DNA from: a virus | Lineage: Duplodnaviria; Heunggongvirae; Uroviricota; Caudoviricetes | IMG/VR virus record: IMGVR_UViG_2585427756_000017 | DNA: 4,155 bases | Reading direction: 5' to 3' (one strand) | In this document: positions 596 to 3,416 of the stretch, piece by piece | Numbering within the stretch: the first letter of the stretch is position 1 | How the letters are laid out: each line of letters begins with the position of its first letter | Program-made: the position numbers and the translations under genes | The notes under the pieces: model-generated | What the model was told of the DNA's origin: nothing | The model's database searches: none | The model's input: only the letters and a program-made list of their open reading frames with translations

Positions 596-620
596 CCTGT
601 TTACCTCTTTCTCAGGAAGT

Positions 621-3416
621 TTAGTCTCCAGGATTCCCGGGGCGGTTCAGTGAATTCTGGACATAAGTGAACCCACCGCCATCATAAAATGCTAACGCAG
701 AACCGCCGCCTCCTGGCCAACGAATACCATTACCATGAGTATGAACACCGGCAGACCCCGTAGAGCCACTCAGACTGTGCGTATGCGCCCCAGTGTTATT
801 CGTGGATTTAGTGCCGTAATCAAACGACGATGTGGTTTTCGTCCCCAAATCCGTACTGGATGCGCTGGCGCTGTGGGTGTGCGATTTTATGCCGTCCTGT
901 TCCTGAGACAATACGGCCCGGCCACTGGCGGGTTTGCCCTTGATTGTCCAGCCGCGCATATCTGGAATAACACCTGAAGGATAGGCAATAGCCAGTTTCG
1001 GATATGCTGCCTTATCAAACGTCTGCCCCTGCATGATTGCATAACCTGCAGGTGGTGTATCTGATGGCCACGGCAGCGGAACACCTGGCGGAAACGCTTC
1101 AATATTTGCCGAGCCGTCAAATTTTACGCCGTTAATTGTCCTTGCAGTTTGCAATTTGGTTGCTGTGCTTGCATTACCCGATAAAGATCCAGTGATACCA
1201 CCACTCGCGTTTAATTTAGTTGCAATTGTAACATTGCCAGTATGGTTACTAATTATAAACGGCCTTAAGCTATTGTGCGTACCAAGACTGTTACCCGAAT
1301 CTGTCAACATAAAATATGTGTTTGATCCATCATTTCGGATAAAGAATCCATAGTTGCCATAGGCAATACGCAGACCATTTGCTGACCTTGAAATAACCTC
1401 ACCAGCAGCAGTTAAACCACCTGAAAGAGTCCCTCCAGTTAATGCCAATGCCCCAATATTTGAAGGGGTCAATGTGATATTTGCACTACCATCAAATGAC
1501 ACACCGTTAATCGTTCTGGCTGCCTGAAGTTTCGTGGCGGTCGCAGCATTACCTGTAGTGTTTTGATTACCGGTAGCGTTGACTCCAGGCAAGTTGATAT
1601 CTGCCGATCCATCAAATGCCACGCCCCCAATCTTACGTGCTGTCTTGATCTTGGTCGCAGTATCTGCGTTTCCGGTCAAATTACCAGTAACACTACCACC
1701 AACTTTTAGTCCATTACCGATGGACACCAACCCTGATCTTAAGTTTATAGAGAATGGTCTTAATGAACCGATGTCTCCATTTTCCCCCTCCCCTTCATTA
1801 GTCGGAATAAGATGAAGATGATCTTCGGAACGCCTAAAAATAAGGCCAAAGGCTTGGTTGAATATTCGAAGAGCATTTATCGTGCTGATTTTTAACTGCC
1901 CTCCCATTGTGTCGCCAGTTTTTTGAACTGAACTATCTTTAACAGTTTTAACTGCCTTTGGCGTTGCCGCCAGCTTTTCACTGGTGCTGTTTGTTGCACT
2001 GCTGAGCTGTACTATCCCCTTTTTCGTCGTGCTCGCATCCTCCAGCGCCACGGCGGATGCAATATCCTCTGCCCGTTTTGCTGCTGTCTCGGCGCGCGTT
2101 GCCGCGGATTCAGCAGCAACTTTGCTCTGAGATGCAGCCGTCGCACTGCCTGCCGCCTCTGATGCTTTCGTTGTTGCTGTCGTGGCACTACCTTTCGCTG
2201 CTGACGCTTGTCTGGTCGCCTCATCTTTTGAAGCAGACGCAGATGATGCCGATGACGCCGCTGAACTGGCTGACGATGCGGCTGCCGCCTTAGAGGAAGC
2301 AGCATTGTCTGCTGAAGTCTTTGCATTTGTTTCAGAGGTTTTTGCTGCAGAAGCAGACCTCGCTGCTGCAGTGGCTTGCTCAGTGGCTTTGCCAGCCTTC
2401 GTTGTGGCTGTTGAAGCGGATGATGCGGCGCTTTCTGCCGATTTTCCGGCGGCGGTGGCACTGGCTGAGGCCTGCCCGGCACTTGTTGACGCGGCACTGG
2501 CAGATAATGCAGCCGCTGTTTTTGAACCTGCCGCAGCTGAGGCGCTCTGTCCCGCTGCTGTTTCAGAAGACTTAGCGTTCGTCTCGGACGTTTTTGCCGC
2601 CTTCGCGGAATTTCCTGCCGCCGTTGCCGAGGAAGCTGCACTACTGGCACTTGATGATGCATTCGTTTCTGAAGATTTCGCTGCCTCTTTTGAGGCCGCC
2701 GCACCCCGTGCCGAGGTGGCAGCTTCTGACGCCTTCGTGGTCGCTGTGGATGCAGAAGTGGCTGCCGATTTTTGTGATGCTGCGGCATTCGTTTCTGACG
2801 TTTTCGCGGCACTGGCGCTGGTAGCTGCCGCGCTTTTTGATGACTCTGCAGCAGCAGCACTTTTTGCTGCTTCACGGGCCTTTGTCGATGCCGTTCCTGC
2901 GCTGGAAGACGCTGACTGAGCCGACGACGCGGCCTGTCCGGCTGACGTGCTGGCGGCACGTGCTGAGGCTGCAGCATCGGTTGCATGAGTTGCCGCCTCG
3001 CTGGCTGATGCACTGGCATCGCTGGCTGATTTTTTCGCGGCTGCCGTATTCTGTGCAACCGCGGAGGCGTTACGTGACACCTCTTCCACCATCTGCTCAA
3101 AGCGGCGCAGTGCCTCCGGTCGGACATCATCCTCCGTCATGGCACCGAGAAAATCATTCAGCGTACCTGGTCTGGAACCTTCATAGACGGTAATGGTCCC
3201 GGCATGTGAAGGCGGAAAACCTTCAACCAGCAGGGTGACGCTGTACTGGCCATGCTCAACATCCATGCTGTAACGTCCGGCTTCATCCGGATTTTCAGAG
3301 GCCACCGTGTTCACCACCACCGTGCTGCTGGTTCGTCTGGCCTTCAGCACAATGGTGCAGTTCTGTACTGGTTTTCCTGTGCCATCTTTAAGCACGCCAG
3401 AAATTTTTACTGTCAT
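621..3416 (-). CDS. stf: Lambdoid-prophage side tail fibre protein Stf, C-terminus truncated by IS insertion (last 9 codons and stop are IS-derived)
   Basis: 931-aa ORF. The N-terminus [26 protein letters not shown]...[33 protein letters not shown] closely matches the lambda Stf / StfR N-terminus as I recall it. It has a long Ala/Ser/Thr-rich repeat region, three copies of the tail-fibre repeat motif [22 protein letters not shown], and a distal [59 protein letters not shown] region like that near the StfR C-terminus. Start ATG at 3416..3414 is preceded by GGTGGA. The final residues LNRPGNPGD and the TAA stop (623..621) are encoded by the IS terminal repeat, so this is probably a disrupted gene or pseudogene. 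Confidence 0.88.
625..649 (-). repeat. Terminal inverted repeat (left end) of the IS629-like element
   Basis: Minus-strand sequence TGAACCGCCCCGGGAATCCTGGAGA starts with the 5'-TG typical of IS3-family ends and lies about 50 bp upstream of the orfA start. The right-end copy is outside the window, so the inverted-repeat pairing cannot be confirmed here. Confidence 0.55.
1108..1178 (-). repeat. Tail-fibre repeat unit 3 within stf (encodes [24 protein letters not shown])
   Basis: Imperfect direct repeat at DNA and protein level with the units at 1481..1552 and 1590..1672; T-A-T-K-[LI]-[QK]-x-A-R-x-I-x-G-V-x-F-D-G-S-A motif. Confidence 0.8.
1481..1552 (-). repeat. Tail-fibre repeat unit 2 within stf (encodes [28 protein letters not shown])
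   Basis: Same motif as units at 1108..1178 and 1590..1672, read from the minus-strand translation. Confidence 0.8.
1590..1672 (-). repeat. Tail-fibre repeat unit 1 within stf (encodes [28 protein letters not shown])
   Basis: Same motif as the other two units, more diverged. Confidence 0.75.
2009..3065 (-). repeat. Low-complexity Ala/Ser/Thr-rich region of stf with degenerate internal repeats
   Basis: Protein residues ~118-470 are dominated by A/S/T/K/E with recurring modules: [10 protein letters not shown] three times, [13 protein letters not shown] three times, [10 protein letters not shown] twice. The GCN/NGC codon periodicity keeps two other frames open (spurious ORFs 2012..3130 minus and 2182..2919 plus). 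Confidence 0.8.

Follow-up and report, generated by a model that had tools for sequence, protein, structure and literature searches.

IS629-type insertion in the side tail-fibre gene stf of a lambda-like Escherichia coli prophage

The insertion sequence (IS) IS629 and its isoforms IS1203 and IS3411, which differ by 4–5%, produce target duplications of 3–4 bp, and 62% of the IS629 copies of O157 reside in prophages or prophage-like elements (PMC3271280). Laboratory phage lambda PaPa is without the side tail-fibre protein Stf through a frameshift (PMC9659904). In T4 gp37 the fibre ends in a needle to which each chain contributes outgoing and returning strands that both take part in iron sites; seven iron ions are held by histidines along its length, and plaque formation was abolished when the iron-binding residues H929 and H931 were changed to alanine (PMC6957217). 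Here we analysed a 4,155-nucleotide stretch of caudoviral DNA (IMG/VR virus record IMGVR_UViG_2585427756_000017), which as a whole is called the window. On its minus strand the window carries, in this order, the genes lom and stf and the left 649 bp of an IS629-type element of the IS3 family. A preliminary description had proposed that an IS629-like insertion in the 3' part of stf creates a chimeric, prematurely terminated open reading frame (ORF), adding that IS insertions in prophage genes are common, a remark that the O157 survey supports (PMC3271280).

The far side of the IS, which lies beyond the window, was recovered by an exact-sequence look-up of the chimeric protein. Four loci are used for comparison: the uninterrupted locus of strain 118UI (L001) and those of strain SW070919 (L002), OZ038772.1 (L003) and CP165072.1 (L004). 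We found that the window matches L003 at 9262–13416 with 100% identity. Uninterrupted E. coli loci match the window at 99.9–100% identity from its position 4155 onwards, the match ending exactly at 650, and positions 649..1 match 1310-bp IS copies at 99.5–100%; the IS boundary is therefore at 649/650, where the preliminary description had put it approximately, and native stf ends at 650 after 922 codons and one base. A chance match is excluded, with 649 bp matching a known mobile element and 3506 bp matching the uninterrupted prophage locus. On the gene strand the junction (slash) reads ...TTC ACT TAT GTC CAG AAT TCA C/TG AAC CGC CCC GGG AAT CCT GGA GAC TAA, where L001 has ...AAT TCA C/AG TAT CAA.... 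The stf frame thus enters the IS for nine codons (LNRPGNPGD) and stops at the TAA at 623..621, as previously described, with two refinements: the first codon, CTG, is a hybrid of one native and two IS bases, followed by eight IS codons, and whether the stop lies inside the terminal repeat depends on how the repeat is delimited, as it occupies IS nucleotides 27–29, at the inner edge of the well-matched 25-bp repeat. The 931-residue product consists of 922 native Stf residues and nine residues from the IS end. Whichever of the three frames enters this end, a stop follows after 0, 8 or 15 codons, and the nine-residue tail is a generic by-product of the IS end sequence.

Analysis of the far side revealed the structure of a simple insertion. 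The IS is whole in L003 (12768–14077, 1310 bp) and likewise 1310 bp long in L004, and in both it runs from TGAACCGCC... to ...GGCGGTTCA. The three bases that follow it, CAC, repeat the three that precede it (window 652..650), giving ...AATTCAC/IS/CAC/AGTATC... in L003 and L004 compared to ...AATTCAC/AGTATC... in uninterrupted L001; the element is flanked by ...AATTCAC and CACAGTATC.... The duplication was found to match the bases from position 650 onwards, as had been foreseen. After the CAC come the remaining 260 nucleotides of stf, with 0 of 260 differences from L001, and then the tail-fibre assembly gene tfa with 1 nucleotide difference, confirmed as Caudo_TAP (E = 1.1e-44). This order in two complete chromosomes verified the suggestion that the native Stf C-terminus and tfa are displaced beyond the IS, and the flanks on both sides of the element are collinear with L001. 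We hold it to be nearly certain that a 1310-bp IS629-type element was inserted by simple transposition into codon 923 of the 1008 codons of stf with duplication of CAC, and this confidence is given for the best explanation as a whole, including its functional steps.

The features of the window are as follows, all on the minus strand.

3568..4155: lom, encoding an Ail/Lom outer-membrane protein (Pfam Ail_Lom, E = 2.7e-119); its first 12 nucleotides lie outside the window.
3435..3464: terminator-like hairpin and T-run between lom and stf, with a 13-pair stem including 7 G–C pairs, then TTTTTATT.
621..3416: chimeric stf ORF of 931 amino acids, from the ORF list, with its stop TAA at 623..621.
650..652: target-site CAC (GTG on the plus strand), duplicated at the far IS end, from L003 and L004 against uninterrupted L001.
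1..649: left 649 bp of the 1310-bp IS, a 100% match to IS nucleotides 1–649 in L003; the remainder lies beyond position 1.
625..649: left terminal inverted repeat, 5'-TGAACCGCCCCGGGAATCCTGGAGA, with 23 of 25 matches to the reverse complement of the L003 right end.
269..595: IS orfA, a 108-amino-acid helix-turn-helix transposase N-terminal protein (Pfam HTH_Tnp_1, E = 6.1e-13).
1..272: first part of the IS transposase gene orfB, which runs off the window (Pfam HTH_21, E = 8.2e-14).
198..314: ALIL pseudoknot across the orfA/orfB overlap (Rfam RF01497, matched over the full length of the model at 120.2 bits; gathering score 50).

We then considered what Stf loses. The chimeric protein has the Pfam domains phage_tail_N, Gp34_trimer, Collar and Phage_fiber, and its N-terminal prophage tail-fibre attachment domain (PF08400, residues 1–134) was detected with E = 4.9e-70. 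The intact Stf of strain 118UI has 1008 amino acids and is followed directly by tfa; its residues 1–922 are identical to the window product, so that alignment with intact homologues gives a loss of 86 C-terminal residues. The last 266 residues of intact Stf align to residues 785–1026 of T4 gp37 (PDB 2XGF, the receptor-binding needle; E = 5.6e-81), and the alignment covers all seven HxH motifs as well as an identical C-terminal ...ENTVKNIAFNYIVRLA, with intact Stf ending in ...NIAFNYIVRLA. In gp37, the D10 collar comprises residues 811–881 and 1010–1026, the stem 882–931 and 960–1009, and the tip 932–959 (PMC6957217). Numbering of gp37 was obtained as chain index plus 784 and verified on H929, H931, I933, N937, G938, G940, G942, G943, S947 and Y949 (PMC6957217). 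The last native residue, S922, pairs with residue 163 of the 2XGF chain, which is gp37 S947 in the distal tip, and the 86 lost residues correspond to gp37 residues 948–1026. The alignment of S922 with S947, together with the domain limits reported for gp37 (PMC6957217), places the insertion at the apex of the hairpin-like needle. The window product keeps the outgoing needle strands and loses the rest of the receptor-binding tip, all returning strands of the six-stranded needle and the strands closing the collar; read from the sequence, three of the seven HxH motifs are kept and four are lost. The complete collar, needle and tip module, with seven HxH motifs and ...NIAFNYIVRLA, is present in the intact allele and absent from the window copy, and the window Stf is a truncated, pseudogene-like derivative of a lambdoid Stf with a gp37-type tip.

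Two further ORFs overlap the stf shaft, one of 372 amino acids in another frame (2012–3130, minus strand) and an antisense one of 245 amino acids (2182–2919, plus strand), and both seem to be side effects of the bias towards GCN/TCN codons in the Ala/Ser/Thr-rich shaft. Repeat-mediated rearrangement in the shaft was also considered and was dropped, as Tandem Repeats Finder returned no tandem arrays in this Ala/Ser-rich part of stf.

The identity of the IS was examined with RefSeq-labelled copies as proxies for the reference IS629 sequence. A truncated copy labelled 'IS3-like element IS629 family' shares 99.7% identity with it over 795 bp, and an O157 copy labelled 'IS1203 family', an isoform, shares 96.0% over the full 1310 bp. 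Copies of 1310 bp with 100% identity were found among the listed matches in many E. coli chromosomes and plasmids, where the RefSeq label is only 'IS3 family transposase', and a place matching 80% or more of the IS was found in 3,043 of 5,426 complete RefSeq E. coli genomes. Its length is as expected for IS629 (about 1310 bp, seen whole in L003 and L004, with 649 bp in the window), and its ends are imperfect terminal inverted repeats with TGAACCGCCCCGGG at both and 23 of 25 matches, in keeping with 5'-TG...CA-3'. Two overlapping ORFs with a frameshift are present, orfA and orfB carrying their helix-turn-helix domains in the window and the full orfB of L003 containing an rve integrase core; furthermore, RefSeq annotates an ALIL feature and a 'programmed frameshift' in near-identical IS copies. 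ALIL pseudoknots stimulate programmed –1 frameshifting in IS3-family elements, and ISfinder regards as isoforms elements with at least 95% nucleotide identity to the reference IS. The CAC duplication in L003 and L004, 3 bp long, falls within the 3–4 bp expected for IS629 (PMC3271280). Since IS1203 and IS3411 count as IS629 isoforms at 4–5% divergence and the duplication is of the IS629 length, the sequence comparisons indicate that the preliminary label 'IS629-like' is apt. We also observed that orfA ends in ...TGG AAA AAA TGA (window 269–284), with an A6 run inside the ALIL match; this run is presumably the –1 slippery site, though in the frame of orfA it does not form a canonical X XXY YYZ heptamer.

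To place the insertion among sequenced genomes, the same 5,426 RefSeq genomes were searched: the target site is uninterrupted in 719 of them, and the junction is not spanned in any. An exact-junction scan of species-representative genomes gave no match, which is uninformative with one genome per species. The identical chimeric protein occurs in 11 other public contigs, among them the two complete chromosomes L003 and L004, three contigs of draft genomes and four from metagenomes, and every carrier agrees with the window at 100% identity in the region that they share, except for a 1-nucleotide indel in L004; the IS copies of L003 and L004 are mutually identical. Because the stf remnant has no differences from intact alleles and the carriers are identical, the sequences point to one recent event that was clonally inherited. 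No deposited phage in the phage collection covers at least 80% of this stf (the best match has 68% coverage at 89.7% identity), so the allele is known only from prophages. SW070919 has this stf allele too, and there a separate event placed an IS of the same type at nucleotide 1724 (L002 6464–7773), with the duplication TAG; this IS is 99.5% identical to that of the window and in the same orientation. Match geometry suggests that CEA106S probably carries the same insertion as SW070919. The stf allele has been struck at least twice by IS629-type elements.

Outside the insertion, L003 and L004 have about 30 differences clustered in the tape-measure gene (L003 471–2676), with near identity over the remainder of the 22.8 kb. 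L004 has a 1-nucleotide deletion at L003 coordinate 2669, and no tape-measure gene is called there. These differences represent either a recombination patch and a frameshift or sequencing error.

The homology with T4 gp37 suggests what the insertion may mean for the phage. It is very probable that the truncated product cannot build a working side tail fibre: folding of the needle is expected to fail because the returning half of each chain is lost, and without that half the 931-residue product would not assume the trimeric form of the tip. If the prophage is induced, its virions would then be without working side tail fibres and, like laboratory lambda PaPa, would rely on the central fibre protein J, which is intact. 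Lambda PaPa is viable despite the loss of Stf; by this analogy, the insertion need not abolish infectivity. The 86-residue remnant has no usable start codon, its frame being opened in the IS right end without ATG, GTG or TTG before the last few codons, and for want of such an in-frame start the 3' part of stf is expected to be silent. By contrast with this remnant, tfa is intact, with a GAGG motif 8 nucleotides upstream of its ATG; it would keep its own ribosome-binding site and lose the one-base-overlap translational coupling to stf. Tfa acts on the fibre C-terminus, which is mentioned as background and was not used as evidence.

Several other explanations were weighed against a simple insertion with loss of fibre function. 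IS copies are frequent assembly breakpoints and all short contigs with the allele end inside the IS, as might be seen if the junction were an assembly artefact, with a contig mis-joined at the repeated IS, or the end of an IS-mediated deletion or inversion. However, both junctions, with the 3-bp duplication perfect, are present in two complete chromosomes that were assembled independently, and the same left junction is found in at least nine independent assemblies, gut metagenomes included. We looked for non-collinear flanks or a missing duplication and found both flanks and duplication as expected for simple insertion, so that an artefact or rearrangement of this kind is given hardly any credence. 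Equally little can be granted to a natural end of the ORF, in which a shorter natural Stf variant has a stop that happens to adjoin the IS. We found no evidence supporting it, while alleles identical over residues 1–922 run 86 residues further to ...NIAFNYIVRLA, an ending shared with T4 gp37, and the missing 260 nucleotides are intact beyond the IS after the 3-bp duplication. The natural-end reading is refuted by these further residues and the displaced stf remnant behind the IS. The preliminary description had itself named an IS boundary elsewhere, or homologues ending at ...FTYVQNS, as signs that it was wrong; neither was seen, the boundary lying at 649/650 and the homologues reaching 1008 residues.

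A functional role for the 931-residue protein, which might still work or work differently, mounted on virions as a tip-less fibre by its N-terminal attachment domain, or whose insertion might have been kept by selection, is improbable, although somewhat less so than the two readings above. In its favour, the attachment domain is intact, as is most of the shaft, the allele is found in 11 contigs from different samples, and the same stf allele was independently struck by the same IS type in other strains. Against this, loss of the returning needle half, with its strands and shared iron sites, should prevent folding (PMC6957217), and the nine added residues are whatever this frame of the IS end encodes. 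Moreover, the contigs are 100% identical over the region, which fits clonal descent, and IS629 often strikes prophages so that selection is not needed (PMC3271280). Selection could have acted through an altered host range or through an outward promoter of the IS driving tfa and the downstream methyltransferase gene. That the insertion is actually being maintained, either by tip-less Stf on virions changing adsorption or by a promoter in the IS right end expressing tfa and the S-adenosylmethionine (SAM)-dependent methyltransferase cargo from the repressed prophage, seems to us slightly less probable again; if it were true, the second hit of the same IS type in stf would be a hint that inactivation of stf has been selected repeatedly in this lineage of prophages. 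What does weigh against the favoured explanation, insertion with loss of fibre function, is that its functional consequences derive from gp37 homology. Nothing contradicts the insertion and truncation as structural descriptions.

The surrounding locus is that of a lambda-like prophage. The gene order J–lom–stf–tfa is found in L001 and L003, the window holding lom and stf with tfa beyond the IS; lom spans 9250..9849 in L003, where the window starts at 9262, and J, the central fibre gene lying upstream, is intact (1157 amino acids). The prophage sits by yciEFG-trp, next to a truncated ompW. Its end (L001 9988–10113; L003 beyond 16258) adjoins an ompW fragment without N-terminus, by yciE, yciF, yciG and the trp operon, and the prophage therefore appears to be integrated in ompW.

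Separate from the insertion, the hairpin between lom and stf (3435–3464, minus strand) ends 19 nucleotides before the stf start codon. Promoter and terminator scans of the window gave counts not above shuffled controls, and this hairpin alone was striking. Late lambdoid transcription is antiterminated, and the hairpin may for that reason act only on lom transcription from the repressed prophage. On the other side of the IS (L003 14759–14973 and 15808–16023; L001 8405–9073 and 9223–9399), the tfa 3' end is repeated about 1 kb downstream at 89% identity. The downstream copy is annotated as a fragment without N-terminus, and the SAM-dependent methyltransferase gene lies between the copies on the opposite strand; it has the look of a cargo gene that entered an older tail-fibre-assembly cassette or was left next to one.

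The event is a textbook case of an IS629-type element entering a structural gene of a prophage, with no sign of a new element or mechanism, and IS629 insertions in prophage genes are already well documented. Its importance goes little beyond annotation: the 931-amino-acid ORF should carry the label of an IS-disrupted stf pseudogene rather than that of a tail-fibre variant, and neither comparisons of receptor-binding proteins nor predictions of host range should draw on its nine terminal residues from the IS. The junction ...AATTCAC/TGAACCGCC... can conveniently serve as a clonal marker: none of the 5,426 complete RefSeq E. coli genomes has it, and it occurs in two further complete chromosomes and in several contigs from draft genomes or gut metagenomes. 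The locus also offers a tidy natural example of a gp37-type needle broken at its apex.

In the literature searched, we found no description of this insertion site. IS629 insertions in O157:H7 prophages were reportedly described by Ooka et al. in 2009. The IS629/IS1203/IS3411 insertions of O157:H7 prophages resemble the present one in their 1310-bp length, TGAACCGCC... ends, orfA/orfB frameshift and 3–4-bp duplication (PMC3271280), and share its habit of landing in prophage genes. Unlike in the O157 cases, the host prophage is a different one, whose stf allele is 100% identical to those of 118UI, ML35 and ATCC 25922, which are extra-intestinal and commensal strains and not O157, and the IS subtype is the RefSeq-labelled IS629 rather than IS1203 as in the O157 copy. 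The SW070919 insertion has the same IS type, orientation, gene and 3-bp duplication length at another site, where stf is cut much earlier. Compared with Ur-lambda, lambda PaPa carries an stf frameshift (orf401/orf314) and is like our case in that a lambdoid stf is inactivated while J, lom and tfa remain, and in that the phage is expected, here by analogy, to be viable without side fibres; the cause differs, being an IS insertion near the stf 3' end instead of a mid-gene 1-bp frameshift. Finally, whereas T4 gp37 belongs to the long tail fibre of a myovirus, Stf is a siphovirus side fibre with a lambda-type N-terminus, and the tip loop region of intact Stf is longer than that of gp37 (2XGF) and divergent. 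This loop is the hypervariable receptor-contact part, and it is exactly there that the IS landed.

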